Shown: positions 2,300 through 55,188, numbered from the stretch's first letter. The stretch: DNA of 64,000 bases from an uncultured Gammaproteobacteria bacterium (GCA_964473715.1 CAYYQC010000001.1:60674-124673); one strand, 5' to 3'. The notes: generated by a model from the sequence alone, not told the origin. Numbers and translations: made by a program.

Positions 2300-3457
2300 A
2301 TGCGTATTGCCATGATTGGACAAAAAGGTATGCCTGCCAGCTTCGGTGGCGTGGAACGTCATGTTCACGACCTAGCCGCTTCTTTGGCTAGCCAAAACCA
2401 CCAGGTATTTGCCTATGGCCGCTCCTGGTATACGGGTAAAAAAGGCCAAATTCAGGTTGATGGCGTAAAGGTGATTCACACCCCTACCATTCATACCAAG
2501 CATTTGGATGCTATTTCCCACACCTTTTTTAGTACTATTCACGCCCTTTTTCAGGGCTATGATGTTATTCATTACCACGGCGTTGGCCCAGCTTTATTGT
2601 CTTGGATTCCTCGCTTATTTAGTCGCCAGACTATGGTAGTGACTACTTTTCACTCTATTGACCGCACCCACCAAAAATGGGGTGGCTTTGCCAAATGGGT
2701 TTTGCGTTTGGGTGAAAAAGCAGCCGTAAAATTTGCCCATTACACTATTACTGTTTCTCGCAGTTTGGAATGGTATTGTCAAAAAGAATTTAATTTGTCT
2801 ACTGTTTATATTCCAAACGGCGTAACTCCATTGGTACAAACTAATAGCCAAGCTGTCTTACAAAAATTCGGCCTCATCCCAAACCAATACTTAGTAATGG
2901 TATCTCGTTTGGTTCCACACAAAGGCGCACATATTTTGATCAAGGCCTTTGCTGAATTCAAGCAAAAAAATCCTCAGTTCGCCCACCTTAAATTAGCTAT
3001 CGTGGGTGGCTCAGTTCATACTGACGCTTATGTAAGTGAACTGCAAACCATGTGTAATTCAGATGTAGTCATGGCTGGTTTTCAAACTGGTACAGATATT
3101 CAGGCTTTATACCAAAACGCAATTGCCTTGGTTCATCCTTCATTGTCTGAAGGTTTACCAATCACAGTCTTAGAAGCCATGAACAATGGTAAACCAGTTT
3201 TATTGTCAGATATTCCAGAGCACTTGGAAATTGGTACTGATTCACGCTTGGTTTTCAAACGTGGTAGTACAGATACAATTGTGACTGCACTCACTAAATT
3301 CTTTGCTCTTAGTCAAGCCGAACAAGATCAAATTGGTGAAGCCAATGCTTTCATTATTGAAACGCATTATCGTTGGTCTCATCTAGTGCCACAAATCCTG
3401 GCTGTATATGCTGGTGAAACTGACATCATTCCAGAAACAATTCTCGCCACTGTCTAA
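2300..3457 (+). CDS. family 4 glycosyltransferase (GT4)
   Basis: N-terminal GGVERHVHDLA motif and C-terminal EGLPITVLEAMNNGKPVL (E-x7-E) motif typical of GT4/GT-B. Confidence 0.8.
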   Translation: MRIAMIGQKGMPASFGGVERHVHDLAASLASQNHQVFAYGRSWYTGKKGQIQVDGVKVIHTPTIHTKHLDAISHTFFSTIHALFQGYDVIHYHGVGPALLSWIPRLFSRQTMVVTTFHSIDRTHQKWGGFAKWVLRLGEKAAVKFAHYTITVSRSLEWYCQKEFNLSTVYIPNGVTPLVQTNSQAVLQKFGLIPNQYLVMVSRLVPHKGAHILIKAFAEFKQKNPQFAHLKLAIVGGSVHTDAYVSELQTMCNSDVVMAGFQTGTDIQALYQNAIALVHPSLSEGLPITVLEAMNNGKPVLLSDIPEHLEIGTDSRLVFKRGSTDTIVTALTKFFALSQAEQDQIGEANAFIIETHYRWSHLVPQILAVYAGETDIIPETILATV

Positions 3458-3469
3458 AAGATACAAATT

Positions 3470-3506
3470 TAAAAAACGCCCTGTGTAAAGCAGGGCGTTT
3501 TTTTAT
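3470..3506. terminator. bidirectional rho-independent terminator between convergent genes
   Basis: acgccctg-tgtaaag-cagggcgt hairpin flanked by an A-run and a T-run. Confidence 0.7.
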
Positions 3507-3517
3507 CGCATGTTTTC

Positions 3518-5512
3518 TTATAATGTTCCGTCAGTTAATAACACCAGATCATCTTTGCCATTAAAATCCACGTCAGAAGCTTGAATTCCCGCAGAACGGA
3601 ATGATTTACTTTTAAACGTAATGCTTGGTGCAAATTGTCCGCCCGCTAAATTATACATTTTTAAAATAGGGTAAGTACCACTACCAAAACCAGTCGCAAT
3701 TTCTGCCACACCATTACCATCAAAATCACCAGCCGCTACTGTTACTCCGCCAGTATATTTTTTATCGTACACAATCACTTCTACCATTTTATTTAACCCC
3801 GGATTATAAATCCCAACGGTTCCAACCCGCCCCTTACCAGAACCAATAATCACGCGTCCACTTGGACCTTTACCTGCAATGGCGATGGAATATCCCCCAT
3901 TATATTTTTTACCAAATGGATACCAACCAGGAAATACTTCTTCACCAATCAAGTTATAAATTTTAATTGGCAAAGCACCTTGAGCTGGTGCCACATATAA
4001 TTCAGAATTACTGTCATTATCCAAATTACCTACGGCCAACCTAATTGCGCCTTTATAATCAGCAGTAAAAGGATAAATCTTAAAAAAAGGCTGGCCATCA
4101 TCTTTGGTAGCTGTAATTTTATTTCCAGATGCCACAATTTGATCACGAACCCCATCACCATCCACATCTAAATATAATACTTGGTCACCACCTTTAAAAG
4201 CTTCATCAAACAAAAAATATCCATTGCGCAAACGCGCGCCATCAATACCATAAAACCGCGCAAATTGTCCATTGGTAAATAAGACATCATCTAAACGACT
4301 AACCGTTTTGCGTAAAATAATTCCATCAGTACCTTCAATATCTACTTCAGAAACAATGGCCCCATCATTCACACTACTAGCCTGCTTACCATTAATTTTT
4401 TCATATTCTCCACCCAGGTCAACGGTCTTAGCTTGATTCGTACTATTTACCAACACCAAACCATGCTCAAAATCACGACGCCAAATATCTGGTTGATATG
4501 AACCTTGTGTATTTGCGGCCAATGAAGGACTAAGGGGCTCACCAAGTGCCACATCATATTCATCATACCACCAAGTTTGTCCATGATTTTGGTCACCATG
4601 GTCATAGGAAAAATAACCATCTTCCAAAAGCGCAGAGCCTAATCCAAAACGCACTTGTTGCAAATTTTCTTTACCGGTATTTGAAGTATTAGAATTAATA
4701 ATATTCACGCGCGGCGCAGCTGTACCACGACTATTTGCTTGATAGGTATTCATGGTATTGGTCCAGGCATTAGCTGCAAAATTTTCGAGCATCTTGCCAT
4801 TTAATTCTTGCTGATATTGCCGCGTTGTACCATTACCAATAATAATCGCACTTGGATTTATTTCTTTAGTTTTGCGATATAAATTTTTCATTCCATTTTG
4901 CCACTCTGTATTAGCATTGGTATCACTGCGTCCATCACCATTTACATCCACGTCATTGCCCACAAAATACGTAATGCTGTCCCACGCATTATCATAAAAT
5001 ACTCCATCCCAAAGACCGGTGGATAATAATTTAGTACTAACAAAACGCACCATATAATCAGTGAGATTTTCTCCACCAACTCGTGGCGCACCTGGCGTAA
5101 CATTTAACACATAGGTTCCCGGCCACCAACTGGTTCTGGCGCCGCCACTATTATGCAAATACCATTGTTCAGAAATACCGGCGGCCAATTCTCTACGGAG
5201 CACACCACCGCCACTTCCTGCATCTTGGCGAATTTCTTGCGGTGTTATGTACACTAATAATTTAATTTCTGGATTCCATTGTCTAATAGCCCGAAGCAAA
5301 GATGGATGACGTTGCTGTACTTCCATATCCATAATCACTACATCATATTTGGCCAAATTCCGCGCTTGGGTTTCATTCAAGTCCCAGTTCAAAAAATAAT
5401 TAGCCACTGGTGGCGTACCTTTACTATTGACCGCATAAACAAAAGAAGGGGTCAAAGTACCCCACACCAAACTTATAATTAGACTCAAAATAGCCAGACT
5501 TTTATACTGCAT
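3518..5512 (-). CDS. secreted protein: N-terminal TIM-barrel glycoside-hydrolase-like region (GH114-like, tentative) fused to C-terminal FG-GAP/VCBS-type repeats
   Basis: Signal peptide MQYKSLAILSLIISLVWGTLTPSFVYA. Repeated DxDGDG/DFDGNG Ca-binding FG-GAP-like motifs in the C-terminal half. Confidence 0.55.
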   Translation of the reverse strand: MQYKSLAILSLIISLVWGTLTPSFVYAVNSKGTPPVANYFLNWDLNETQARNLAKYDVVIMDMEVQQRHPSLLRAIRQWNPEIKLLVYITPQEIRQDAGSGGGVLRRELAAGISEQWYLHNSGGARTSWWPGTYVLNVTPGAPRVGGENLTDYMVRFVSTKLLSTGLWDGVFYDNAWDSITYFVGNDVDVNGDGRSDTNANTEWQNGMKNLYRKTKEINPSAIIIGNGTTRQYQQELNGKMLENFAANAWTNTMNTYQANSRGTAAPRVNIINSNTSNTGKENLQQVRFGLGSALLEDGYFSYDHGDQNHGQTWWYDEYDVALGEPLSPSLAANTQGSYQPDIWRRDFEHGLVLVNSTNQAKTVDLGGEYEKINGKQASSVNDGAIVSEVDIEGTDGIILRKTVSRLDDVLFTNGQFARFYGIDGARLRNGYFLFDEAFKGGDQVLYLDVDGDGVRDQIVASGNKITATKDDGQPFFKIYPFTADYKGAIRLAVGNLDNDSNSELYVAPAQGALPIKIYNLIGEEVFPGWYPFGKKYNGGYSIAIAGKGPSGRVIIGSGKGRVGTVGIYNPGLNKMVEVIVYDKKYTGGVTVAAGDFDGNGVAEIATGFGSGTYPILKMYNLAGGQFAPSITFKSKSFRSAGIQASDVDFNGKDDLVLLTDGTL

Positions 5513-6787: not shown

Positions 6788-8284
6788 TTGACTTGGCAGT
6801 GTAGTAGTCTTATACTTAGAGCATTAATTGTTTACATGTTCCGCCACCTGTCATTCCCCCGCTCTCTTCTTTTTATCCTGCTTACAGCTGGAATTTTTGT
6901 GATTGCAAATCCCGCCCCTGCAATTGATTTGGCAATTATTGGAGCGGCTATTTTTGCCGCAGGTTATGTGGTGCTGAAAGAAAAAATTCTTTTACTGTTT
7001 TTAGCCGCGCGTCCTGCACTTGATGTATGGCGCGATACTGTTATTGTTGGTGGCCAAAATGTGAATGCCGTGCTTGCGATTTTGTTTTTTGGTTGGGCCA
7101 TTGTCATGCTCTTTAAACACCGAGAAAAAATTGAAAAAGTGCCACTCTTAGGACTTTTTACTCTCACAGGCGGATGGTTTTTATATAGTGCCACATACAG
7201 TTTAGATCCAATCTTAAGCATAATTGAAACAGTTAAATTTTTAAATATCGGTCTTATTTTCTTCTTGTCCTATATTTTCATTAAACAGGAAATTCTTAAA
7301 CCTATTGAGATTGTCACAGCCATTGCCGCAGGCGCAGCCATTCCACTCCTCATGGGCCTCATACAAATTGTTTTCCAAACCGGTATTACTACTTTTGAAA
7401 TTCAAGACCGCATCTTTGGCACATTTGCACACCCAAATGTCTTTGCTTTTTTTGTCATGTTCTTATTATTTTTACATCATCATTACAGCACCATGTCTCC
7501 TACGGCTTTTTGGGAAAAACATCATGGATGGCGCGTGGGTATTTTTGGTATTTTAATTCTTTTGCTATTACTCACCTATACACGCGCGGCGTGGGTAGGA
7601 TTGGCCATTTACGCAGCCATGATGGCACTACTAAGTTATCGCAGACCATCACTCAAAATTTTATATGTGCTGGCTGGAATTTATGTAATTTTATTTCCAG
7701 CAAGTGACTGGCTCACTCGCAATACAGATTTTAGACCAAACGATTACCCTATTATTGCGCGTTTAACTACACGTTCAGAAGAAGCAGATTCAGTAGATTG
7801 GCGTTTAAATTTAGTACGTTCAAACTTACGCTTAATTGTAAAAGGCCCACGCACTACTCAAGGATTTGGTTATGGCACTTTCCCCATTGTTTGGGAACAT
7901 GATCGCCCAGAATCTAATGAAACAGATGATAGCGCAGAATCACATAATGATTATTTGCGTTTAGCTGTAGAAGTTGGAGTGGTTGGTTTAATCCTGTATT
8001 GCTTATTGCTGGCGCGCTTAGCCTGGATTGCAGGTCGGCTTGTACTTGCACCACCATCATCATATAAATTATTACAACACAATAAAACCACCTGGCTTCG
8101 CCGTTTCCGTGAACGTGATTTACATTTATTTTTATTTGGTTCAATTGTAGTGTTTGGCATTGTCAGTTTATCCGACAACATGTTGCATCACACACCAGTA
8201 CTTTGGATGATCTGGAGTATTTGGGGAACAATTTTGGCCGAAGCACCGTGGCGTACCAGTGGGCCGAATTTCTTAGATAATTAA
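6788..8284 (+). CDS. O-antigen ligase/polymerase-like (Wzy_C/WaaL family) polytopic membrane protein. The true start may lie downstream of 6788.
   Basis: Many TM helices. Periplasmic loop ESHNDYLRLAVEVGVVGLILY resembles the Wzy_C signature. Confidence 0.6.
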   Translation: MTWQCSSLILRALIVYMFRHLSFPRSLLFILLTAGIFVIANPAPAIDLAIIGAAIFAAGYVVLKEKILLLFLAARPALDVWRDTVIVGGQNVNAVLAILFFGWAIVMLFKHREKIEKVPLLGLFTLTGGWFLYSATYSLDPILSIIETVKFLNIGLIFFLSYIFIKQEILKPIEIVTAIAAGAAIPLLMGLIQIVFQTGITTFEIQDRIFGTFAHPNVFAFFVMFLLFLHHHYSTMSPTAFWEKHHGWRVGIFGILILLLLLTYTRAAWVGLAIYAAMMALLSYRRPSLKILYVLAGIYVILFPASDWLTRNTDFRPNDYPIIARLTTRSEEADSVDWRLNLVRSNLRLIVKGPRTTQGFGYGTFPIVWEHDRPESNETDDSAESHNDYLRLAVEVGVVGLILYCLLLARLAWIAGRLVLAPPSSYKLLQHNKTTWLRRFRERDLHLFLFGSIVVFGIVSLSDNMLHHTPVLWMIWSIWGTILAEAPWRTSGPNFLDN

Positions 8285-8307
8285 ACCCACCTATTAAAAT
8301 TAGCAAA

Positions 8308-8338
8308 TAAAAAATCCACTTATTCAGTGGATTTTTTA
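8308..8338 (+). terminator. rho-independent terminator after the ligase gene
   Basis: atccact-tattc-agtggat hairpin followed by TTTTT. Confidence 0.7.
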
Positions 8339-8492
8339 CATTCTTATTCTCACCAGCAAATGATGAAGATAAGAGTTGTGGGGGCGGCGAAATTAATCAC
8401 CGCCCCTTTGCTCCCTTCCCCTCCAAGGGAACCATTCCCGGGCGCGCGTGCCGGGCAGGTCAGAGATTTCTGACCACTTAGTTGTGATGCGC

Positions 8493-9845
8493 CTAGTTGG
8501 CCGGCGGGCTCGGCATGAGCCAGTCGTCCCATCCGCCGGGCGAGCAGATGTAGACCCCGTTGAGGTCGGCCGGCTTGGAGCCGTCGAACACCTCGTTGAG
8601 GGTCCATTTCGGGTTGATGCCCTGCGGGATGAGGGTGATGTTCGGCACCGCGCCGGAGCACAGGTTTCCCTGGCCATCGACGTTACCGCTACCGACCCAA
8701 TCCTGGGCCTCACCCTCGTGGTTCGTCACCACGTTGAAACCGAATACCTGGCCCTCGCACCAGGTCACCTCGCGTCCGAGGTTCTGCCACTCGCCGACCG
8801 GCCAGCCGTTGTTCGCATCAGCGTAGCTGACGAGACCAAAGAACTGGAACCCCTGCTTCACGCGGAGCGTGTAGCAGTTGACGGTCGGGAGAACGATGGG
8901 AGTACCGTTGCAGACGCCGGAAGCGCCGCACTGGTCGCCCGTCGTGGCGGAGTCGCCGTCGTCGCAGGTCGCGCCGACATTGATGGTTCCGCCGGCGCAG
9001 AGGCCGTTGACGAAGGTCGTTCCCTGCGTGCAGGGGTTGAAGTCGTCGCAGGTCTGCGCGGAGGGGGTCGTCGTTCCGACGCAGACGCAGGAAGCGTTGA
9101 GCCGGTCGTTGGTGGTGTTGATGTTGCCGTCGTCGCAGGATGCGCCGACGTTACAGGGCGGAGTAGGTGCCGAGTGGCAGCCCGTGCCGTCCGTGCAACC
9201 GTAGTCACACGACTTGAAAAAGTAGTCCTCCGGGACGCAAGTGCCGCTGACGCAGCTGGCCTTGGTCTGATAGAGGTTGTTGTTTTCGCACCACTGCGAC
9301 CCGGCGCCGCAGTCGGCGTTGGTGATACACTCGGGAACCGGGATCGGATCGACGTCGTCGTTGTTGATGATGACGATGGTCGTCGTGCCGTCGGCACCAT
9401 CCTTCATCGTGAAGGAGGTCCCGTCGGTGCACTTGACGATCTTGGTCCCGTCGCTGTTTGGGAATGCGGAGCAGGACGAGCCGTCGAGCCCGTCAAGTCC
9501 GTTCTTCCCGTCCGTCCCGTTCTTCACGGTGGCGGTGGTACCGTCGCTGCAGGAGATGCTGGCGCCCGTGCTGGTCTCGCTGACCATGCACGAAACGCCC
9601 TCCTTCCCGGGCACGCCCTGCGGACCGCGGCAGAGGCCGCTGTCCACGATGCAGACACCACCTTCGCCACAATCGGCGTTGGAGGTGCACTTCAGCGTCT
9701 CGGACTCGCTCTGAGGCTGAGTCGGATCGGCGCCGCAACCCGCGGCGAGGGTCATGATGAACACCACGACGAGGAAACCAACCGACTCGGTCAGCGAGGC
9801 GAACAACGCCACCTTGAAATTGCGCACGGTATCTCCATGAAGCAA
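8493..9845 (-). CDS. high-GC lipoprotein with collagen-like GxY triplets and Myxococcus-type cysteine-rich repeats (CDDGN..C)
   Basis: Lipobox signal ...FIMTLAAGC. GPQGVPGKEG and GTDGKNGLDGLDG triplets. Repeats SCDDGNINTTNDRLNASC and TCDDGDSATTGDQCGASGVC. GC-rich codons. Confidence 0.6.
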   Translation of the reverse strand: MLHGDTVRNFKVALFASLTESVGFLVVVFIMTLAAGCGADPTQPQSESETLKCTSNADCGEGGVCIVDSGLCRGPQGVPGKEGVSCMVSETSTGASISCSDGTTATVKNGTDGKNGLDGLDGSSCSAFPNSDGTKIVKCTDGTSFTMKDGADGTTTIVIINNDDVDPIPVPECITNADCGAGSQWCENNNLYQTKASCVSGTCVPEDYFFKSCDYGCTDGTGCHSAPTPPCNVGASCDDGNINTTNDRLNASCVCVGTTTPSAQTCDDFNPCTQGTTFVNGLCAGGTINVGATCDDGDSATTGDQCGASGVCNGTPIVLPTVNCYTLRVKQGFQFFGLVSYADANNGWPVGEWQNLGREVTWCEGQVFGFNVVTNHEGEAQDWVGSGNVDGQGNLCSGAVPNITLIPQGINPKWTLNEVFDGSKPADLNGVYICSPGGWDDWLMPSPPAN

Positions 9846-10373
9846 AAGTGCCGCTCTTTCACATCGTTCGCGTGTGAATAGAGGGCAAAGGTCACCTGAA
9901 CCGTAGTGTTAGGGATAATAGACACCGAATGGTGTCCAGCAGAGCCCCATCACTACGTAGATGGGGAAGAAAATATCTTAATAAAATATCTTCTTCCCCA
10001 TGGTGACCTCTTCTAGAGAGGTGCGTTATAACCTAAGCTGTAAAGAGAGGTATGTATCTCACCTTTCGGGGAGACAGTGGTACCCTGTTCTGGGCCAGAT
10101 TGTCTGGTTCAGGACAGGAGACCGCTTTAAATTTTAACTGAAAAGTATACCATTATTAGACGAATTTGTCAAGGGGGTTATCCACTCCCCTTAGAAGAAG
10201 CTCAATCACCTGGGAACCAACTATATTGATTACCAAAGGATTGAGTGGGAGCGGCTTTTCGAGCTACTCCCAGCCGTGTCGCTACCCCGTGGGCAGACCG
10301 ACTCGACTGAGCAGCAAAAAGCCACTCCCTCCCCCCTTGTGTCCCGCGCGAGCTAGCGCTGCGGGACGATGTC

Positions 10374-11342
10374 CTAGAACTTGTATTCGACCTGAAGGCC
10401 GAATTCGAACAAGCTCAGCACCGAGGCGTCCTTGAAGGACATCCCTGGCGCGATGTTTGGGTTGACTCCACCCTCACCGTAGAGGGTGAAGAGGCCAGCG
10501 TAGGCCGAGGTGGAACGCGAAAGCGCCAGCGGGCGGAACTCCGCTCGTGCGTCGATCGCGATTCCCCGAATGTCCCAGCTCCAAGCCGCATCTGGACCCG
10601 ACTGGGTCCAGCGTGCGACCAGGTAAATCCCGAAAGCTTCCCGGGCATAGCCCAGGAGCCACGAGACCTCCCCGCCGATCTTACGGCTCGTTTCCGACCC
10701 ATCGCCGGCGAGACCCATCAGGGCCCCGACGGTGACTGCCGTCCGGAAGTCGTAGACTCCCAGCTGGATACCGGCGTAGACGTTCTGGATGGAGGTGTTG
10801 CCCCCCACCAGACGGTAGCCGGTGCCGACGAGCGGCGAGATGTGAACGATGGACTGGGGCGGGGCGTCGCGGCCATTGCGAACGACCGCTCGTGTGCCAT
10901 CCTGACACTCGATGGTTGCCCCGCGCATGGTCTGGTGGACCGTACAGGACTTGCCGTCCTGACCGTTGCTTCCATCGACGCCGTCGATCCCGTCGCACCA
11001 TTCGGCCGCGGTGCCATCTCGGCACTCGAGCCGGTGGCACTTGCCATCGGTGTCCGTCACGTCGGAGATACTGCAGGAGCTCTTCGTGAGCTCCTCGAAC
11101 TCCTTGCGCTTCTTCTCGCGCGCGCGGAGGTTCCACTCCGCCCACTCCTCGCAGGAGATGGGATCGCCGTCCTGGTTCCGACCCCAGAAACCGGGGCCAT
11201 CCGCAGAACAGCAGAAGGTGGAGGTGAAGGCGCGGGACTCGCAACGGCCGACGCAGTCGGCCCCGTCGTTGCAGGTCTCCTCGGCCTGCGCGCTGAAGGT
11301 GAGGACGAGGAAAGCGAAGAAGAACATTACGAAACGAACCAT
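10374..11342 (-). CDS. high-GC secreted Cys-rich protein with a C-terminal OMP-like beta-barrel signature
   Basis: Signal peptide MVRFVMFFFAFLVLTFSAQA. Cys-rich N-terminal region with GIDGVDGSNGQDG. C-terminal alternating-hydrophobic strands ending ...LQVEYKF (terminal Phe). Confidence 0.55.
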   Translation of the reverse strand: MVRFVMFFFAFLVLTFSAQAEETCNDGADCVGRCESRAFTSTFCCSADGPGFWGRNQDGDPISCEEWAEWNLRAREKKRKEFEELTKSSCSISDVTDTDGKCHRLECRDGTAAEWCDGIDGVDGSNGQDGKSCTVHQTMRGATIECQDGTRAVVRNGRDAPPQSIVHISPLVGTGYRLVGGNTSIQNVYAGIQLGVYDFRTAVTVGALMGLAGDGSETSRKIGGEVSWLLGYAREAFGIYLVARWTQSGPDAAWSWDIRGIAIDARAEFRPLALSRSTSAYAGLFTLYGEGGVNPNIAPGMSFKDASVLSLFEFGLQVEYKF

Positions 11343-11656
11343 GGTGTTTCTCCGTGCCCAGCAGCGCTGGGCAAGTTTGGGTGTAACCTGAGTTGTACGG
11401 TACGCTTGCCCAGGGGAACCCCTAGGCTTTTGTTGTTGGTCACCGAAGTGGCCATCTCAATTCCCTTCTATACTAGATAGAAAGGTACTAAAATGGCGAT
11501 TTTGGCTAAGATTAGCGACGATTTGCCTATTTAAAAACAACAAACGAGTATAGCATTTTTTAGTGATTTTGTCAAGCCTGTTATGGATATATACCCTAAA
11601 CTAAAAACCCTCTCTTTACAAGAAGGTTTTTATAATTACCTGTTTCTAGACCATGG

Positions 11657-14600
11657 CTAATCAATCCATTTTTTTCCCCCAAACTTACCACCCACCACCC
11701 CGCCCAAAAGTCCAATGATACCTCCTACATATTTCTTCCATTTCATAGGAGTTTCACCTAGGCGTTTCATTTCTGAGTTAACTTTATCTTGTGTACCAGT
11801 ACGTTCTTTAATAAGTGAGTCTAAGATAAATTTACGCTTACCTTTTTCATCTTCTTTAAAATATTCTATTTTGCGCAGCTTGTATAACAAATTTTCCACT
11901 TCTAATTTTAGACCAGCCTTACCATTGAATTGACCAGTGAATAAAGCTACATCCAAAGTATTAATATATTCTTGAAGATCTGTATTCTTTAATTTTTCTT
12001 TTTTCTCTTCATCATCAAGCTTATCAATTGCAGCCATGTCATTAATAATTTCTTTAACCCCTTTAACCGTTTTCTTAGTTTCTTTTTTCAAAAAATCTTT
12101 AACTGTTTCTGCATCTAAGTGCGCACCAATTTCACCACCAGCAAGCATACCACTTACACCAAGAATAATACGTCTAGATAGAATAGAGGAGGTAGTAAGC
12201 GCAATACCAAGACCAATACCCATGGCACCAGATACCATATCGCCTTTACGACGCAATTCTTTGGACTTAGAACGCGCCCACATGTATTTACCTTTTATTT
12301 TATCAATCGCAATACCCAGATTACCTTTAGGGTCTGCTCTACCAGAAAACTTACCATCACGAGAACTATGCGCCTTATCTGCATCAGAATAATTTTTATC
12401 AATATCTTTTTTCATAGCAGATGCAGCGTCGCGCGAATGATTGAGTTTATGTAAATACTTATCGAGTAAAGCCAGACGTTCACCAGCAATATCACCCTGT
12501 TCATGATATTGCTCACCAATAGTATGTGCAGCTTCAATACGAAGCAAGTACAAACCAGCAGAATCACGTGGATCTAATCCCCCTTTTCTTTCTTTGGCCG
12601 AACGCTGCAAAGTGGCCTGCCGAATACCTTCAGAAAGCCAAGCAGCCATGCTTCGCATTTTATATTCATTTTTAGCTTTAATTTCTTCAAGAACTTGATT
12701 ACCAATTTTTTTCTTCTTATCAGAATCACCTTTTTTAATATCTTCTTCTCCAACATTATCAATAAATTTAACAGTGCGGTCCCGCCAACTTGTGAGCCAA
12801 CGATTGGAAAGTTGTGCGGCTGATGTAGCCATAACCACTGAAGTATCGTCATTCATTTTAAATTCATCTTCTAAATATTCTCCAGCCACCTGACCAGCTG
12901 CACCACCTGCCACAAAAATACCTAGACGCAAGCTACGTTTCTTAGCCAAACCCCAAGTTTTTCTCCAATTCATTGAGTTAAAAAAACCATCAGTCGCCTC
13001 TTCGATAGTTGTTTTTCGGTCATCATTCGCAGCTTGTTGAAAAATTGGAAATACTTCTTTCCATAAACCACGTTTCTGTTCTCCTCCTACCCACATTTCT
13101 TTAAATTGATCTACAGTAAGATTATTTTCTTTTAATGCTTGAGAAAACTTACCCATAGTAGATTTTTCATCAGCAGACTCCACTACATCTTTAAATAATT
13201 CAATGAAGGCAAGCTCAGCATCGGTCTTATTTTTAAAAATCATTTCCGATACTCCAGCTAATTTTTTACTCAAATCACCAGCTGGATTTGTGTCAGCTTC
13301 ATTAATAAGCATTTCCAAAAATACTCCAGAATCAATATTAACAATTGGTTTAGGCTCACCACCTTCAACATCTTTCCACTCAGGCTTTGGCAAAGCACGC
13401 GCGTCAGGCGCTTTTTCTTCATGATGACCATGCGCGTGTCCGTCTGCGTGTCCATGCGATTGTCCATGTGCATGACCACCACCATGACCCGCATCATGTT
13501 TGGGTGCGGCATGAGACGCAACTGTTTTGGCTGCAGGCGCAGCATGTTTTTCTTGGTGTTTTTCGGCTGGTTTTGCATGACCCTTATCGGCAGGTTTATG
13601 TGCATCAGGTTTTGCATGACTGACTGCGTGATCTGATTTATGTCCATGATCTTCACCATGACCGTGTGCAACACGCGGATAAATATTTCTATAATCCACA
13701 TGAGACATGAGTGTGTCCCAAGTATCTTGAAAATTACGAACAGTTTTAATGGCACGATTAAAAGAAGATTCAATTAAATCTTTTTCTATGTCATCGGCAT
13801 GAGCATCTTCAATTTTGTAAAGCGCAATGTATTTGGCAAAACCGCTAGCATCACCTTTTATTTCCGCCTGTACAATCTCATGACGATCATTAGGTTTTTC
13901 AGAAACAAAAGTAATGATTAAATCATGATTGGGAGCCACGGAAATAGTATCAATTTTAAAACTTGGAATAATTACTTCCACGGTTTTGCCTAAATACTCA
14001 AAAGTACCTTTTTCTTTATTTAAAACATTTAGTTTAACCGAAGACTCCAGTTCTGGTTCTTCATGATGTTCTTCATTAATTTCCTCAGCTGGAACAATGG
14101 CCACATCAGAGGTTTTTTTGGCTTTTTGCCACACTTCCATTTCTGCTCGCAAGCCTGAAAGTAACGAAGGAATTTCAGTAAGCGGCTGACCAGTTTTTGA
14201 GACCTGAGATAAACGATCAGAGAGAGCGCCATCAATTTTATAGAGAAGTTCAACCTGTGTAACTTTTTTTCCTGCAAAATGAATTATCATTGAAACATCA
14301 ATGTTGGTATTTTCATCCTTCTGCGAATAATCAAATGAAATAAAATTTTTACCTGTTTTAAGAGGAGTCTCTAATTCAAATCCATCTGGAATATCACCAA
14401 AATTTATAGTATGATCAGGATCACTTTCTAAAGTAAGACGATTGAATACCTCATCATAATCTTTAATTCCTTCCAATGATTGCAGAATTTCTTTTGATGT
14501 TTTTGGTTCGTTTTCTACACGTGGCTGTGGTGATTTTACTTCAGGTGCGATTGGAGCAGCCGCAGGTTGTGGCAAATTATCAGTAGTAGGATTGATTAAA

Positions 14601-15970
14601 TCTTTTTTAAATTGTTCAAAAAAAGCTGGCAAATTATCTACCACTGGTTTGGCGCAAATTTTGCGATAACTAACACTAGTATCATAATCCTCATCATCAT
14701 TACGTGGAGAGGAAGTAGCCGAAATAAGTTCTCCCTGCTTATTAAAATAAATTTCAAAAACCGCAGCATATTTATATGCGTTTTTTTCTGGTACTTGATT
14801 ATAAGAAAAACGAAGGTGACCATCTTCAGTACCTGCAGTCAGGGCCTGACTATTGTAAACATAATTACCAGGTACATCTTTAAAATTAATTTCCCCACCA
14901 TCTAGTTTAAGAACAGCATTTTCACTATTATATTCTTTGACACCCTTAAGTTTTTTAACAAACTCACTATCACCGCCCATGACGTCTGCAACTATTCCAT
15001 TTAAATAAACCTTAACATCTAATCTCAGATTATCTAAAGTGGTTGGTTTTGAATAGGTACTTCCCGCCCTACCGTATCTGGTAATTTGAATGTAACCAAG
15101 ATCATCTAAAGCACTGATTTCTATTCTGTTTTCTTGACCGTTAGTTATTTTTCCCAAATTTGGAGAAGGAAAATCAATCACTAAAACCGACTTATTATCC
15201 TTTTTAGTAAAGGATGTCACATAAGACATTTTTTCACCGATCAATCCTTCTGTCCATTCATTAGCCCCAGCTAATAAATCTTCTCCATTGCACTCGATAC
15301 CTTGCTCTGAAACAGAGATACCTGTGGAATTTTCAAACTCATCTTTAAGCGTAGGCGCTTCAGCTTGAATACCTTTCAATTCTTGAATTCTTTTCCAAAA
15401 AATTTCAACATTATTATCAGCGATTTTATCCAATTTTAGATTACTATAAATACCAGTTCTACTTTGCAAATACTCAAATTGCAAGGGAGTAAACTTAAAA
15501 GAATATTTTTTCAATAATGTTTTAAACTTAGACTTATTATTCTCTTGAAACAATTCAGAATCTGGTTTGATGTCTAACAATCTAATGGCAGCATCTACAA
15601 AAGCAGTTTCATCACTTTGAGTTTTTTCTGCTTCACGTTGTTTTAATAATTCTTTTCTAATTTCAAGTAAATTATTCAAACTATCATGAATAGCTTTAAA
15701 CGGCTTGCCTCCTGCTCTGGCAAGCACTTTGGCATTCTGCAGCGTTTCAACTTCATCCTTAATCAGATCAATTTCCTGAATAGTAATACTTTTTTCTGCT
15801 TCAATTTTTTGCAGCAACTCTTCAATTTCTTCATCAGAAATAGAATCAGTTTTTTTTCGGAGTTCTAAAAGCTGTGCAGCAGCGTCATTGCCTAAACGAT
15901 TTTCTAATTTTTTTTCTGAAGCCGCAACTTCTTTTTTATTCGGACCAAGCCATTTTTCAAATAATCCCAT
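11657..15970 (-). CDS. giant (1437 aa) cytoplasmic or membrane-associated protein. N-terminal coiled coil, internal His-rich low-complexity segment, C-terminal glycine-zipper amphipathic/TM segments. Function unknown.
   Basis: Uninterrupted ORF with no signal peptide. HGHGEDHGHKSDH...GHAHGHHEEK stretch. GxxxGxxxG-type segments GIGLGIALTT and GGIIGLLGGVVGGKFGG. Confidence 0.75.
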   Translation of the reverse strand: MGLFEKWLGPNKKEVAASEKKLENRLGNDAAAQLLELRKKTDSISDEEIEELLQKIEAEKSITIQEIDLIKDEVETLQNAKVLARAGGKPFKAIHDSLNNLLEIRKELLKQREAEKTQSDETAFVDAAIRLLDIKPDSELFQENNKSKFKTLLKKYSFKFTPLQFEYLQSRTGIYSNLKLDKIADNNVEIFWKRIQELKGIQAEAPTLKDEFENSTGISVSEQGIECNGEDLLAGANEWTEGLIGEKMSYVTSFTKKDNKSVLVIDFPSPNLGKITNGQENRIEISALDDLGYIQITRYGRAGSTYSKPTTLDNLRLDVKVYLNGIVADVMGGDSEFVKKLKGVKEYNSENAVLKLDGGEINFKDVPGNYVYNSQALTAGTEDGHLRFSYNQVPEKNAYKYAAVFEIYFNKQGELISATSSPRNDDEDYDTSVSYRKICAKPVVDNLPAFFEQFKKDLINPTTDNLPQPAAAPIAPEVKSPQPRVENEPKTSKEILQSLEGIKDYDEVFNRLTLESDPDHTINFGDIPDGFELETPLKTGKNFISFDYSQKDENTNIDVSMIIHFAGKKVTQVELLYKIDGALSDRLSQVSKTGQPLTEIPSLLSGLRAEMEVWQKAKKTSDVAIVPAEEINEEHHEEPELESSVKLNVLNKEKGTFEYLGKTVEVIIPSFKIDTISVAPNHDLIITFVSEKPNDRHEIVQAEIKGDASGFAKYIALYKIEDAHADDIEKDLIESSFNRAIKTVRNFQDTWDTLMSHVDYRNIYPRVAHGHGEDHGHKSDHAVSHAKPDAHKPADKGHAKPAEKHQEKHAAPAAKTVASHAAPKHDAGHGGGHAHGQSHGHADGHAHGHHEEKAPDARALPKPEWKDVEGGEPKPIVNIDSGVFLEMLINEADTNPAGDLSKKLAGVSEMIFKNKTDAELAFIELFKDVVESADEKSTMGKFSQALKENNLTVDQFKEMWVGGEQKRGLWKEVFPIFQQAANDDRKTTIEEATDGFFNSMNWRKTWGLAKKRSLRLGIFVAGGAAGQVAGEYLEDEFKMNDDTSVVMATSAAQLSNRWLTSWRDRTVKFIDNVGEEDIKKGDSDKKKKIGNQVLEEIKAKNEYKMRSMAAWLSEGIRQATLQRSAKERKGGLDPRDSAGLYLLRIEAAHTIGEQYHEQGDIAGERLALLDKYLHKLNHSRDAASAMKKDIDKNYSDADKAHSSRDGKFSGRADPKGNLGIAIDKIKGKYMWARSKSKELRRKGDMVSGAMGIGLGIALTTSSILSRRIILGVSGMLAGGEIGAHLDAETVKDFLKKETKKTVKGVKEIINDMAAIDKLDDEEKKEKLKNTDLQEYINTLDVALFTGQFNGKAGLKLEVENLLYKLRKIEYFKEDEKGKRKFILDSLIKERTGTQDKVNSEMKRLGETPMKWKKYVGGIIGLLGGVVGGKFGGKKWID

Positions 15971-15975
15971 ACCGC

Positions 15976-16170
15976 TTATTTAAACTGAGAAATCTTTTGC
16001 AAAATATTGTGCAATTCTTCTTTGTCAGAAAAATTTTGTTCTTCTACTCGAAGACGTTTCATTTCAGTGCGAATAATTTGCATTTCTTGTTCAGCTCTCA
16101 AAAGAAGGTCAATAGTATGCCTCATTTCTTGGCGTTTGGCAGCCTTATCTTGAGATTGAACAGAAATCAT
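15976..16170 (-). CDS. small coiled-coil protein (64 aa)
   Basis: Heptad-like charged sequence. A 5-nt gap separates its stop from the start of the giant gene (same strand). Confidence 0.45.
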   Translation of the reverse strand: MISVQSQDKAAKRQEMRHTIDLLLRAEQEMQIIRTEMKRLRVEEQNFSDKEELHNILQKISQFK

Positions 16171-18915: not shown

Positions 18916-19394
18916 ACAGCCGCCACTGCGGTTTGGAGTTTTTTAATGATTTCTTTCCAGGCAGTTATTTTTTCCTCGTCAGATTTTTTAGGGTCAGTAT
19001 TGGTAAACTCAAGCGCGGCTTTGAGATGCGCGTCGCGAGCATTTTCTGGAACGCGAACCAAAAAGAAAAAATCATTTAATATTTTTGACGCTTTGGCAGC
19101 AGTAATGTTTGACTCCATATTTGATTCCATATCAGCAGCCACCACCGCCAACTCACTTTGATATGAAGAAATAATTTCGGCCGGGGTACGTTCAGGGGGC
19201 AGAGTTTCCACTGGCTGATTGCTTAATGAGTCAGGTAATACTTGGCGAAAGCGTGGCCAAGCTATAATGGCCACAATAACAAAAGTAAAAATCACACCAG
19301 CCATAAGGAAGTGTGGAACTTTTGAATGAGTAGATAAATCCATAGAGATAAAATAATTGTCCGTAGTATACCGTATAGAGGGGGTAAGTTGCAA
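18912..19394 (-). CDS. single-TM membrane-anchored protein (160 aa), first gene of the operon
   Basis: TM segment MAGVIFTFVIVAIIAW. Charged C-terminal domain. Confidence 0.5.
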   Translation of the reverse strand: MQLTPSIRYTTDNYFISMDLSTHSKVPHFLMAGVIFTFVIVAIIAWPRFRQVLPDSLSNQPVETLPPERTPAEIISSYQSELAVVAADMESNMESNITAAKASKILNDFFFLVRVPENARDAHLKAALEFTNTDPKKSDEEKITAWKEIIKKLQTAVAAV

Positions 19395-19430
19395 AAAATC
19401 GCTAACTCACCTATTATTACTCTAGTTTTT

Positions 19431-19874
19431 ATGCCCACCTTAGCCCGAAACCGACGTGCCAGTTTTGATTATGAAATCCTTGAAAAATTTGAGGCTGGCT
19501 TAAAATTGAGTGGTTCTGAAGTAAAATCAATCCGTGGTGGACATATTTCCTTGGCCGGTGCTTTTGTAACTTTCCGCGGTGATGTACCATTTTTGACCAA
19601 TGCGCATATTCCAGCCTATCCTTTTGCCCAATATCCAGCTGGTTATGAACCCACCCAATCTAGAGAGCTTTTATTAAAAAAGAAAGAAATCGCTTATTTA
19701 CGCGAAAAATTGCAAGAAAAGGGATTGACAGCGCTCCCTTTGTCCGTGTATACTAAACAGCGCTATCTTAAGCTAGAAATTGGTATTGGCCGAGGCAAAA
19801 AAGCCTTTGACAAAAGAGCCAGTATCAAAAAACGTGAAAACGAGCGAGAGATACGCAGAGAACTTAACAGTTAA
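19431..19874 (+). CDS. smpB: SsrA-binding protein SmpB. The start is probably the internal Met (MPTLARNRRASFDYEIL), not the ORF-track start at 19389.
   Basis: Conserved FDYEILEKFEAGLKLSGSEVKSIR... and the basic C-terminal tail. Confidence 0.9.
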   Translation: MPTLARNRRASFDYEILEKFEAGLKLSGSEVKSIRGGHISLAGAFVTFRGDVPFLTNAHIPAYPFAQYPAGYEPTQSRELLLKKKEIAYLREKLQEKGLTALPLSVYTKQRYLKLEIGIGRGKKAFDKRASIKKRENEREIRRELNS

Positions 19875-19880
19875 CATTAC

Positions 19881-20272
19881 GGGGATGACAGGCTTCGCTA
19901 GGTGGAGCTTGTTACTGTAATTAGGCATGTCGGCCGCACCGCCGTTAGAGGTGCACAAGTAATAAGTGCCAACTTATTCAACCAGGTGAAGACAGCTGTT
20001 GCTCGCGCATTCAGCCCTTCATTTGCTCCTGCTCTCGCTTAATCGCCTGTAGCCATCACTCTTCTGAATCCTAATAAGAAATCAGTGGTGCCAACCCATT
20101 GGGATATACCAGCTTCTCCAATCAGAAGTGAGCTGGAAGAACTTGGCTCTGATTTAGGATGCTGATATTTTGTCGCTTTTTCACCAGTGTCCGAAACAAC
20201 AAAGCTGGCTACACATGTAGATTAATTCTGTAACCCATCTATACCCGAGTTCAATTCTCGGCATCTCCACCA
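19881..20272 (+). ncRNA. ssrA: tmRNA (ssrA)
   Basis: Begins GGGGATG and ends CATCTCCACCA, giving a 7-bp acceptor stem with a G.U pair at the third position. T-arm CCGAG-TTCAATT-CTCGG. Internal tag reading frame ...ANLFNQVKTAVARAFSPSFAPALA-TAA. Lies immediately after smpB. Confidence 0.85.
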
Positions 20273-21894: not shown

Positions 21895-21968
21895 GGATCG
21901 GTAGTTCAACTGGTTAGAGCACTGCCCTGTCACGGCAGAAGTTGCGGGTTCGAGTCCCGTCCGATCCG
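21895..21968 (+). tRNA. tRNA-Asp (anticodon GTC)
   Basis: Cloverleaf: acceptor GGATCGG/CCGATCC, D-stem GTTC/GAGC, anticodon stem CTGCC/GGCAG with loop CTGTCAC, T-arm GCGGG-TTCGAGT-CCCGT, discriminator G. Near-identical in layout to bacterial tRNA-Asp. CCA not encoded. Confidence 0.85.
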
Positions 21969-21980
21969 CAGAACAGAACG

Positions 21981-30525: not shown

Positions 30526-31173
30526 CTACTCGCTCGGATTGATCTCCTGAACGTGGAGGATCTGAAAGGGTAACCAGTGCCCAACCTGCATTCCAGTGAA
30601 GGAATACTTCTGTAGGGTGAGGACAAACTGGCCCCCATTGTCCGGAATGAGCGAAGTCAGACGCAAGACATTCTCCTCGCCCACCTCCACATATGACTCC
30701 CTGGTGTCGTCGATTGGCCCGCCCATGGATACCTCGATTTGGGCGTGGTCGAAGGCCGGAACCAATAGCTCACCAGCGAAGGTGAACTCAGCGACCCGTT
30801 CAGTGGTGCCGGGATTCAGCCACTTCCACTTGAACCCGTTGGCCAGGTTCATGCGGATCGTACATGAGTCAGGACAGAACACGGTGACATCACCGTGAAT
30901 TGAGAATGGGTCGAACCAGTCGACCTCCTTCTCGACCGCCTCAGTGATGCCGTCGTGGTCGTTGTCGACCCCATCCGCCGGGGTGGCAGGCTCGTGTTCC
31001 TGGGGCGGACATGGCTCGTCGCTGTTGCCAGCGGCGAAGGCCGCGGCGGCGGCCGCGATGAGTTCCGGCGGCAGCGGGACCTTCACTTCCGGCACCGGAA
31101 CCTTAATGTCCGGGGTGCAGGCGGCGACGAAGAGGGTGAAGAGGGCGATGATGAAGTTGATGGAAACGCGCAT
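30526..31173 (-). CDS. high-GC lipoprotein (probable start MRVSINFIIALFTLFVAAC)
   Basis: Lipobox VAAC. PVPEVKVPLPPE linker. GC-rich codon usage unlike its neighbours. Confidence 0.55.
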   Translation of the reverse strand: MRVSINFIIALFTLFVAACTPDIKVPVPEVKVPLPPELIAAAAAAFAAGNSDEPCPPQEHEPATPADGVDNDHDGITEAVEKEVDWFDPFSIHGDVTVFCPDSCTIRMNLANGFKWKWLNPGTTERVAEFTFAGELLVPAFDHAQIEVSMGGPIDDTRESYVEVGEENVLRLTSLIPDNGGQFVLTLQKYSFTGMQVGHWLPFQILHVQEINPSE

Positions 31174-31275
31174 TGTCTTTGCTCCGTCTGAGAAATGATT
31201 CCGGGAAACTCCCCGGCGAGTACTAAACCAACATTGTAAAGAACTGACTTTTTTTAGCAACGAACGAATATAACA

Positions 31276-31318
31276 CAAAAAAGAGCCTTTGTCAAGGCTC
31301 TTTCCTATTTTTTTGGCT
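31276..31318. terminator. bidirectional terminator hairpin at the right edge of the high-GC islet
   Basis: AAAAA-agagcctt-tgtca-aggctct-TT...TTTTTTT. Confidence 0.6.
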
Positions 31319-55185: not shown

Positions 55186-55188
55186 ACG

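Follow-up and report, generated by a model that had tools for sequence, protein, structure and literature searches.

Results

A Sharply Bounded GC-Rich Island Carries Two Genes for Secreted Proteins

We analyzed a 64,000-nt stretch of DNA deposited under an uncultured Gammaproteobacteria bacterium (GCA_964473715.1, CAYYQC010000001.1:60674-124673), hereafter the window, in which positions are counted from the first letter. Our subject is a short GC-rich island that carries two genes for Cys-rich secreted proteins, which we call A and B. A first-pass annotation had described an abrupt high-GC island of ~3.1 kb in AT-rich DNA, with spurious open reading frames (ORFs) in the other frames and a low-GC terminator at its left edge, and this description is borne out by GC content, codon usage, and the hairpin followed by a T run at 8308-8338. 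The mean GC content of the window is 40.7%. In 200-nt windows it jumps from 0.385 (8200-8399) to 0.655 (8400-8599), stays at 0.58-0.685 to ~9800, dips to 0.44-0.47 over 9800-10300, is again at 0.575-0.685 to ~11300, and has fallen to 0.40 by 11400-11599. Across the whole 64 kb, values above 55% in 300-nt windows are confined to 8300-9950, 10200-11500, and 30550-31300, where a third GC-rich gene (C) is found. All three genes are on the minus strand. The functional unit of the island extends from ~8339 to the B promoter at 11575, and its features and borders are as follows.

Adjoining the left end of the island, plus strand: host Wzy gene, separated from A by the terminator at 8308-8338
8308-8338, between Wzy (plus) and A (minus): low-GC bidirectional terminator hairpin, an inverted repeat with a 13-bp stem and then a T run; left boundary
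8339-8492, minus strand: 3' untranslated region (UTR) of A, conserved, GC-rich, and multi-hairpin, with GGTCAGAAATCTCTGACC at 8458-8475 and GGGGCGGTGATTAATTTCGCCGCCCC at 8381-8406
8493-9827, minus strand: gene A, predicted 444-aa lipoprotein with GTG start and lipobox LAAGC; GC 0.64, GC content at third codon positions (GC3) 0.87
9828-10137, minus strand: 5' leader of A, ~310 nt, with a 5' hairpin at 10079-10123 and a 19-bp hairpin at 9961-10001
10144-10172, minus strand: A promoter, TTGACA-17-TATACT with extended -10 TG; 11/12 consensus
10185-10373, minus strand: 3' UTR of B with four hairpins, including 10341-10367 (small, covarying), 10247-10329 (83 nt), and 10201-10245; z = -6.0
10374-11342, minus strand: gene B, predicted 322-aa secreted protein; GC3 0.81; mosaic allele
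11343-11540, minus strand: 5' leader of B, ~200 nt, structured (z = -5.45) and conserved, with Shine-Dalgarno (SD) sequence GGAG before the ATG
11547-11575, minus strand: B promoter, TTGACA-17-TATACT with extended -10 TG; 11/12 consensus; right end of the conserved unit
11603-11631: terminator of the host gene for a giant protein, just upstream of the B promoter

The two coding sequences (CDSs) carry most of the GC-rich signal. GC3 is 0.87 for A (with the corrected start discussed below) and 0.81 for B, and 0.23-0.33 for the neighboring genes. Codon usage in the island is roughly the inverse of that in the host, with AAG at 96% vs. 16%, CAG at 97% vs. 25%, ATC at 88% vs. 11%, and TTC at 92% vs. 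16%. First and second codon positions (GC1 and GC2) and the amino acid composition of A and B are shifted as well. The GC content of A exceeds that of the window by 24 percentage points (64% vs. 40%). Island non-coding DNA is at 0.42-0.55, and host intergenic DNA is at ~0.39. On the coding strand of the island, G (0.302) and C (0.307) are balanced, so there is no GC skew or G-rich strand, and no G-quadruplex (G4) motif was found in the island. Long ORFs are indeed present in other frames and strands, as is to be expected where AT-rich stop codons are few. Full-length antisense ORFs lie over the GC-rich genes both in the window, at 8448-9881 (plus strand, 477 aa, opposite A) and 10842-11480 (plus strand), and in the related contig L011 introduced below, at 13125-14489 and 14781-16106 (plus strand), with 441 aa opposite its B-like gene; these we take to result from the scarcity of the sense codons TTA, CTA, and TCA.

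The host can be named from its proteins. Pyruvate kinase, NrdR, FtsA, and the 1437-aa neighbor of the island (MBP7992070.1, locus tag KAZ30_00235) are exact matches to proteins of Candidatus Magasanikbacteria metagenome-assembled genomes (MAGs). Judging from these matches, the host is a member of Candidatus Magasanikbacteria (Patescibacteria/Candidate Phyla Radiation, CPR). The gene content fits CPR bacteria, comprising FtsZ/FtsA, HisRS, glycosyltransferases, a Wzy-like O-antigen ligase, a T4SS-pilin-domain protein, and two giant surface proteins (1437 aa and 3809 aa). CPR bacteria are generally regarded as being without an outer membrane.

A and B Combine Conserved Domains with Collagen-Like and Cys-Rich Modules

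Alignment with relatives places the start of A at the GTG at 9827, behind an SD GGAG, and not at 9845, which provides the protein with a lipoprotein signal peptide. An N-terminal Cys motif comes first, and behind it are short GXY runs together with beta-hairpin modules resembling DUF7151. Next are three Cys repeats of the CDDG type, each 28-29 aa long, and a C-terminal domain of ~130 aa for which family scans found no known family. The first-pass annotation had read A as a lipoprotein with collagen-like GxY triplets and CDDGN...C repeats, and the lipobox, the short GXY runs, and the three CDDG repeats uphold this reading. It had also assigned the Cys repeats to the Myxococcus type and both proteins to a Myxococcota- or Bdellovibrionota-like source, of which less stands. 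The CDDG repeats are there, but the match to the Myxococcus cysteine-rich repeat TIGR04201 (19.9 bits, E = 5.9e-4) is below the 25-bit cutoff, and the likeness to these phyla extends to a short, widespread collagen/beta-hairpin module and not beyond it. Otherwise, A of the window has only sub-threshold matches to DUF4988 and DX. The A-like protein of L011 matches both DUF7151 and Pfam Collagen above threshold (PF01391, 36.2 bits vs. 27.2), while PF01391 matches neither A nor B of the window. A structure model of A (AF2, 11-sequence alignment) reached a pLDDT of 52 and had no Foldseek match against the PDB at E <= 0.001 (TM ~0.1), and was set aside as unusable.

B begins with a Sec signal peptide (...SAQA/EE) and a conserved 6-Cys N-domain. 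A charged helix then precedes the variable stalk, and a conserved C-terminal domain of 165 aa closes the protein. The stalk consists of a Cys beta-hairpin module in the window and of collagen GPQ repeats in other alleles; for two of these, P0014 and P0015, there are precomputed PF01391 matches, flagged as weak. When the C-terminal domain was searched with HMMER against 1.84 billion representative proteins, only its own family and one 156-aa protein (E = 4e-8) were found, and on this evidence the domain is essentially unique to the lineage. B had been described as a signal-peptide protein with an outer-membrane beta-barrel-like C terminus. The signal peptide and the ...EYKF end are present, and all B alleles end in F (...YKF, ...WLF, ...HQF), but the barrel is unsupported. 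Neither an outer-membrane protein (OMP) family nor any other in Pfam or NCBIfam matches B of the window (for the B-like protein of L011, PagL appears at E = 0.17 only). With z = 1.1, the amphipathic beta moment of the C-terminal domain is not above that of shuffled sequences, and this domain is an orphan; the terminal F is all that recalls a barrel. A structure model of B (AF2, 5-sequence alignment) had a pLDDT of 41 and was unusable too. The B protein (P0011) comes from an NCBI assembly and has no NCBI accession or name, unlike its neighbors (MBP79920xx), so the GenBank annotation may not call this gene.

Each Gene Is a Predicted Transcription Unit with Structured, Conserved Untranslated Regions

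The leader of A is strongly structured, with a minimum free energy (MFE) of -123.6 kcal/mol (z = -10.1), and 9 of its 51 predicted base pairs are kept through compensatory double changes. Downstream of the gene, the first ~95 nt past the stop codon are nearly identical in the relative L003 despite 58% identity of the A proteins. In the 3' UTR of B, the 83-nt hairpin is invariant across five loci, and the version in L011 has diverged with the same basal stem, while the small hairpin after the stop codon shows the compensatory changes GCGC/GCGT, GCAC/GTGC, and GTGC/GCAC. A search of 7500-12500 against Rfam at E <= 1 returned, at best, terminator-like matches of 18-33 bits, well below gathering scores; the leaders and the 83-nt hairpin are RNA elements not previously described. 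Together, these signals show that A and B are each organized as a predicted transcription unit of their own, with promoter, structured leader, SD, and multi-hairpin 3' UTR. The two promoter regions (10144-10181 and 11547-11584) are 74% alike over 38 nt, beyond the hexamers, which suggests a duplicated promoter module or a shared regulator site.

The Same GC-Rich Locus Recurs at One Chromosomal Site

Among 5.8 billion clustered proteins, we found six full-length or nearly full-length relatives of B and one of A. The relatives that we could compare are metagenomic contigs, mostly short, and provide seven alleles of B and four of A; the Wzy-like protein at the left end of the island served as an additional synteny probe. 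Wherever contigs extend past the GC-rich genes (L001, L002, and L005), these genes are flanked by low-GC DNA. In L002, an independent NCBI assembly, the C terminus of the giant protein encoded directly upstream is 92% identical to that in the window, and its B, which has collagen GPQ repeats where the window has the Cys module, is 62% identical over aligned positions (53% by BLASTP). In L001 and L005, from two further samples, the tail of the giant protein is 35% identical, and B is 62% and 59% identical, respectively.

More distant relatives were recovered with the Wzy probe. L011, where Wzy is 81% identical, shares its entire gene order with the window and has a 4-kb island of 60-72% GC between Wzy and the giant gene. 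This island contains a divergent B-like gene, a divergent A-like gene for a collagen/Cys-rich lipoprotein, and a third GC-rich gene. In L012, Wzy is 44% identical, the synteny GT4-GHL15-GT4-Wzy is kept, and the GC content jumps to 0.68 at the corresponding place; the jump lies inside a Cys-rich minus-strand ORF at the end of the contig (12400-12770). The L010 contig, whose Wzy is 86% identical, continues for 41 nt beyond this gene (11449-11490) and stops at the island edge. The product of the third gene of L011 (12283-12828) is membrane-anchored, is 181 aa long, and contains the motif CPACNCNC; this gene has no counterpart in the window. A low-GC gene for an NYN-domain protein lies between Wzy and the island in L011 (within 11551-12828) and in L012, and is likewise not found in the window.

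The junction architecture is thus common to six independent assemblies with four host backgrounds (window, L001, L002, L005, L011, and L012), of which L001, L005, L011, and L012 were each assembled from a separate SRA run. In the window and in L011, the sequence runs through the entire island into host genes at either end. The first-pass annotation had left a choice between an assembly chimera or contaminant join and a recent horizontal acquisition. Because six assemblies share the junctions and two contigs span the island, with L011 holding both junctions on one contig, a chimera is excluded as far as sequence alone allows.

The Composition Is Maintained across Saturated, Mosaic Alleles

In a recently acquired island, the composition would be expected to decay towards that of the host, with GC>AT changes in excess. 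For B, the fraction of fourfold sites that differ at conserved residues is 0.47-0.63 between the window and the six other alleles, with saturation at 0.65-0.70; for A, it is 0.32-0.68. Even so, GC3 lies at 0.70-0.84 in every allele of B and at 0.79-0.90 in every allele of A. In the host giant gene, fourfold sites are T in 0.57-0.60 and A in 0.20-0.23 across genomes. The host sequences have themselves diverged far, since Wzy fourfold differences reach 0.55-0.70 with saturation at 0.72-0.73. For the giant-protein flank, only 0.245 of fourfold sites differ between the window and L002, while B is near saturation, from which it follows that the B alleles of these two genomes long predate the divergence of their hosts.

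Where segments of two alleles share 90% identity or more, AT>GC and GC>AT differences are balanced at 23:22 (10:13 in a conservative subset). Host AT-biased mutation acting on sequence of 63-80% GC would be expected to give 77-94% GC>AT (~5:1), and the binomial P for the conservative subset ranges from 2e-2 to 3e-7. These weak-to-strong (W>S) and strong-to-weak (S>W) changes were polarized with saturated outgroups that are themselves GC-rich, which would tend to inflate GC>AT, so a balanced count is conservative. As judged from these alignments, the findings show two compositional equilibria side by side in one genome, lasting longer than synonymous saturation.

B alleles are mosaic. When compared in 20-codon blocks, the window and L006 are 100% identical over the signal peptide and early N-domain and then 16-78% identical. 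For L001 and L006, N-terminal blocks are at 65-85%, the variable stalk goes down to 36%, and most of the C-terminal half is at 96-100%. L001 and L005 reach 98-100% only in the middle, and L002 and L006 are 83-93% identical in the collagen segment. Allele phylogeny is decoupled from host phylogeny. These patterns show, at the level of sequence comparison, segmental homologous exchange among genomes from different samples.

The same evidence bears on the recent horizontal acquisition that had been proposed, and contradicts it. The island sits at the same site in lineages where Wzy is 81% and 44% identical and host synonymous sites are near saturation; its alleles are saturated yet GC-rich, W>S and S>W changes are balanced, the promoters are of host type, and no mobility genes are present among the 25 window ORFs scanned.

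Shared Promoters and a Shared Codon Dialect Define a Gene Class

The third GC-rich region of the window holds a gene with signals of the same kind.

30526-31173, minus strand: gene C, predicted 215-aa lipoprotein with lipobox FVAAC; GC3 0.77; 93-nt leader, predicted transcription start near 31260
31267-31295, minus strand: C promoter, TTGACA-17-TGnTATATT, embedded in the terminator hairpin of the upstream gene

The flanks of gene C are at host GC content (0.35-0.37). The motif TTGACA-N17-TGnTATAyT occurs at four sites in the 64 kb (both strands), and three of these are predicted to drive A, B, and C (3 of 42 genes; hypergeometric probability ~3.5e-4). Promoters are conserved in all loci compared, that of A being kept in L001, L002, L006, and L011. 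Identity of promoter plus leader to L002, L001, and L011 is 93%, 86%, and 81%, respectively, for B, and 96%, 88%, and 84% for A. The B proteins of the same loci are 62%, 62%, and 30% identical, so that the non-coding parts are better kept than the proteins, and the divergence of this scaffold (93-96%, 86-88%, and 81-84%) follows that of the hosts. A further gene of this type lies elsewhere in L012, between a CLIPPER-domain gene and GT4. At 2556-5087 (plus strand), it encodes an 843-aa lipoprotein-like protein with 12% Cys and ten Dicty_CTDC repeats, has a GC3 of 0.80, and is preceded, 205 nt upstream, by the same type of promoter.

The members of this class (A, B, C, the third gene of L011, and the 843-aa gene of L012) share a codon dialect. 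CTC is used more than CTG in 10 of 11 island-class genes, with a tie in one, and the same is true of GTC over GTG. C3/(C3+G3) is 0.54-0.71 in the GC-rich genes, and their relative synonymous codon usage (RSCU) correlates with that of A and B at r = 0.73-0.94, against r = -0.5 for host genes. In a truly GC-rich contig, L009, CTC is at or below CTG. A dialect shared across unrelated protein families points to a common process within the lineage and not to imports from assorted donors. These comparisons show, within the sequences sampled, that the GC-rich, C-ending dialect appears stable, actively held, and common to all genes of the class in the lineage.

The dialect does not simply follow secretion. 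The 3809-aa giant protein and other signal-peptide proteins of the window use host-type codons, and because these proteins keep a GC3 of 0.23-0.29, secretion alone is not sufficient for the GC-rich dialect.

Searches for a Foreign, Mobile, or Phage Origin Are Negative

BLASTP of both proteins had been proposed as a way to find a donor lineage. Among the 5.8 billion and the 1.84 billion proteins searched, no full-length relative was seen in a GC-rich genome. Pfam scans that covered 25 ORFs of the window, most with a length of 250 aa or more and those flanking the island among them, found no integrase, transposase, or reverse transcriptase, and no tRNA gene lies next to the island. Target-site duplications had also been suggested as worth looking for; no direct repeat common to the two ends of the island exceeds 8 nt. 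Partial copies or silent cassettes of A, B, or island DNA were absent from the rest of the window by tblastn and blastn. A diversity-generating retroelement was considered and rejected, with no reverse transcriptase in the 25 ORFs scanned and no island repeat elsewhere in the window by blastn. Inspection, by eye only, of the sequence after the 83-nt hairpin revealed no GTTRRRY of an integron attC site.

Broader collections gave little more. GTDB representative genomes contained no relative by peptide patterns and no copy of the invariant hairpin 24-mer, JGI metagenome contigs yielded only the L002 contig again, and viral contigs had no island copy. There was nothing in PHROGs for A, B, or C of the window, no match among INPHARED phages, and nothing in PDB sequence searches. 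PLSDB gave only a match to a Bdellovibrio plasmid module, at 21-22% coverage. The collagen/beta-hairpin module is found also in this plasmid, in L009 (uniformly 63% GC), and in a low-GC phage-like contig, L008.

Neighboring Genes in the Window

The 1437-aa neighbor of the island (11657-15970, minus strand) has no Pfam domain and contains a low-complexity stretch rich in His, Gly, and Lys (...HGHGEDHGHKSDH...GHGGGHAHGQSHGHADGHAHGHHEE...). Identity is 92% to L002 over the C-terminal part but only 35% to L001 over the last ~80 residues; the protein may itself be fast-evolving or swapped between alleles. Farther along, an SmpB-like ORF (19389-19874, plus strand) lies directly before the tmRNA gene (19881-20272, plus strand), whose tag is ANLFNQVKTAVARAFSPSFAPALA, and the sole tRNA of the window is tRNA-Asp(GUC) (21895-21969, plus strand). 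The 3809-aa giant protein (43756-57444, minus strand) has a signal peptide and a GC3 of 0.24, and its gene is downstream of that for a protein of 751 aa in which T4SS-pilin and Big_5 domains occur together. These surface genes are followed, at 41858-43718, by two more that encode TSP3-repeat proteins.

Discussion

A Probable Resident Surface-Protein Locus

We consider it probable that the island is a resident, recombining, and highly expressed surface-protein locus, ancestral to the lineage and not foreign, in which a GC-rich codon dialect has been maintained. Coding segments are swapped piecemeal between genomes by homologous recombination on a conserved non-coding scaffold. The products of A and B would be abundant, probably trimeric and fiber-like surface adhesins under diversifying selection, with roles in attachment to host cells or substrates or in phage evasion. 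We infer a surface fiber or adhesin because collagen repeats, a lipid anchor, Cys modules, and hypervariability come together in these proteins; collagen repeats imply trimers, since they form a triple helix.

If alleles recombine very often, the GC-richness itself could be the outcome of a GC bias in the repair of mismatches within heteroduplexes, a process akin to GC-biased gene conversion (gBGC). Since such a force acts only where alleles differ, it would make the variable CDSs GC-rich and leave the near-invariant scaffold only mildly so, and it would shift GC1, GC2, and amino acid usage as well. Of the sources considered we favor this one, though tentatively, as a possible source of the composition and not yet a probable one.

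Several points weigh against the account as a whole. High expression is predicted from promoter and leader sequence only, and the adhesin or fiber function from signal peptides, collagen and Cys repeats, and hypervariability, with structure models that are poor. gBGC in bacteria is debated, and a change in GC3 from ~0.25 to ~0.85 would far exceed any effect reported for it. Gene C and the 843-aa gene of L012 share the composition, and recombination is documented for neither. The GC enrichment is mostly in the CDSs, which also fits selection on mRNA or translation. Finally, sampling is thin (7 B and 4 A alleles on mostly short contigs), and the W>S/S>W counts are few, polarized on saturated outgroups, and drawn from allele pairs that overlap and are not independent.

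Weighing the Alternatives

The main rival keeps the locus resident and has its GC-rich codons held by expression-linked selection in place of biased conversion. In one version, GC-rich RNA and structured UTRs would make long-lived mRNAs that resist AU-targeting endonucleases; in another, C-ending codons would be translationally preferred or regulatory for this gene class. Much of the evidence could be read in this way. Enrichment is largely limited to the CDSs, with the flanks of gene C at 0.35-0.37 and island non-coding DNA at 0.42-0.55; all of the GC-rich genes have the strongest promoters of the window and long structured leaders, and examples are known of long structured 5' UTRs stabilizing S-layer mRNAs. 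C-ending codons are favored over G-ending ones, the GUC anticodon of the tRNA-Asp in the window pairs best with GAC, and gene C has the same dialect with no documented recombination. We nonetheless regard this rival as unlikely, since the shift is global and includes a preference for AAG, GAG, and CAG, an unusual direction for translational selection in AT-rich bacteria, since GC1, GC2, and amino acids are shifted too, and since per-site selection would have to be strong in what is likely a small effective population. The other secreted and giant surface proteins, moreover, keep host-type codons (GC3 0.23-0.29).

Explanations that bring the GC-rich DNA from outside fare worse. Repeated re-import of coding segments from a GC-rich source outside the sampled sequences, be it a phage, a plasmid, or the bacterium on which an epibiont lives, would account for the decoupling of allele and host phylogenies, for the module in L009 (63% GC), L008, and the Bdellovibrio plasmid, and for the sub-threshold likeness of A to the Myxococcus Cys repeat. 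It is improbable all the same, because the full-length relatives that extend past the island (L001, L002, L005, and L011) sit in low-GC DNA and carry the same AT-rich promoters and leaders, and because no full-length homolog is found in the GTDB, viral, phage, or plasmid sets or, for the C-domain of B, in 1.84 billion proteins. The dialect is also unlike that of L009 and common to unrelated island families, and recombination at the scaffold needs donors with the same scaffold. A single recent and unameliorated acquisition from a high-GC diderm of the Myxococcota or Bdellovibrionota would explain why composition and codons resemble those of an organism of ~65% GC, and why a module recalls Bdellovibrio and Myxococcus types. 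The island is, however, syntenic across near-saturated host divergence, with saturated alleles that are still GC-rich and balanced W>S/S>W changes; there is no integrase or transposase in the ORFs scanned and no adjacent tRNA, the end repeat does not exceed 8 nt, the promoters are of host type, and no donor was found, which together make this origin highly improbable. A chimera or contaminant join is the least credible of all: the switch is abrupt, and L010 breaks exactly at the island edge, as if assemblers struggled there, but six assemblies share the junctions, the window and L011 span the island, and scaffold divergence tracks that of the host.

Comparison with Known Systems

The closest analog of the locus, read as a resident and recombining one, is vls of Borrelia. 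There, cassettes of 49% GC are conserved across species in a genome of 28.6% GC under "strong selective pressure to maintain" this composition, which has been linked to segmental gene conversion (PMC11499132). Here too we find a lipoprotein (A), segmental variability, and a maintained GC excess. In contrast to vls, there are no adjacent silent cassettes or partial copies within 64 kb, there is no GC skew, G-rich strand, or G4, and the bias is towards C-ending codons; exchange is seen between genomes and not within a cell, two transcription units have long structured leaders, and the organism is an environmental CPR bacterium and not a vertebrate pathogen. Because silent cassettes within the 64 kb and G-skew are lacking, the locus is not a member of the vls family.

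Recombining bacterial genes have been reported to have higher GC3, mostly via non-optimal GC-ending codons (Lassalle et al. 2015, PMC4450053). In line with this gBGC pattern, the most mosaic genes here are the most GC-rich, and all amino acids are affected; however, the reported effects are of a few points across core genes, whereas here ~55-60 GC3 points are seen in few genes. At the protein level, GXY repeats beside globular domains in secreted proteins recall the collagen-like adhesins Scl1/Scl2 of streptococci and Lcl of Legionella, as well as phage tail fibers. The A-like protein of L011 matches Scl and Lcl models and tail-fiber PHROGs via its collagen repeat, with Scl and Lcl scores far below cutoffs. 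Unlike Scl and Lcl, the proteins have no LPXTG and A is lipid-anchored, the short GXY runs of A in the window are sub-threshold, and the terminal domains are orphans.

The sharp compositional break, inverted codons, and position beside a terminator are those of a classical horizontally acquired island. Unlike such an island, this one occupies the same site clade-wide, has no mobility genes, tRNA target, or direct repeats, uses host-type promoters, and is at compositional equilibrium. Integron cassettes, too, differ from the genes of this island in that they typically lack promoters of their own. A hypervariable surface gene of Gracilibacteria involves a synonymous PTD nucleotide repeat and represents a different phenomenon (Sieber et al. 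2019, PMC6851277). We found no description in the literature of a GC-rich gene class in CPR bacteria.

Implications

Compositional islands are routinely taken as signs of transfer or contamination and are often trimmed from MAGs, while the one described here appears to be a long-maintained, lineage-wide property of a gene class. Composition-based binning and decontamination tend to break or drop such loci (cf. L010), and islands of this kind may therefore be under-represented in MAGs. We think it possible, though short of probable, that the Magasanikbacteria clade keeps two stable codon dialects, one for a strongly promoted class of Cys-rich secreted proteins and lipoproteins (GC3 ~0.8) and one for the rest of the genome (~0.25).

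If biased conversion is the cause, this would be by far the strongest bacterial case, and a natural experiment that makes a contested hypothesis testable. If selection on mRNA or translation is the cause, the dialect would represent an unrecognized layer of expression through codons and mRNA stability, coupled to structured leader RNAs, and a new way in which an organism with a reduced genome sets apart a few abundant surface proteins. Under either, the hypervariable and probably fiber-like surface proteins encoded at the locus are candidates for roles in host attachment or as phage receptors.

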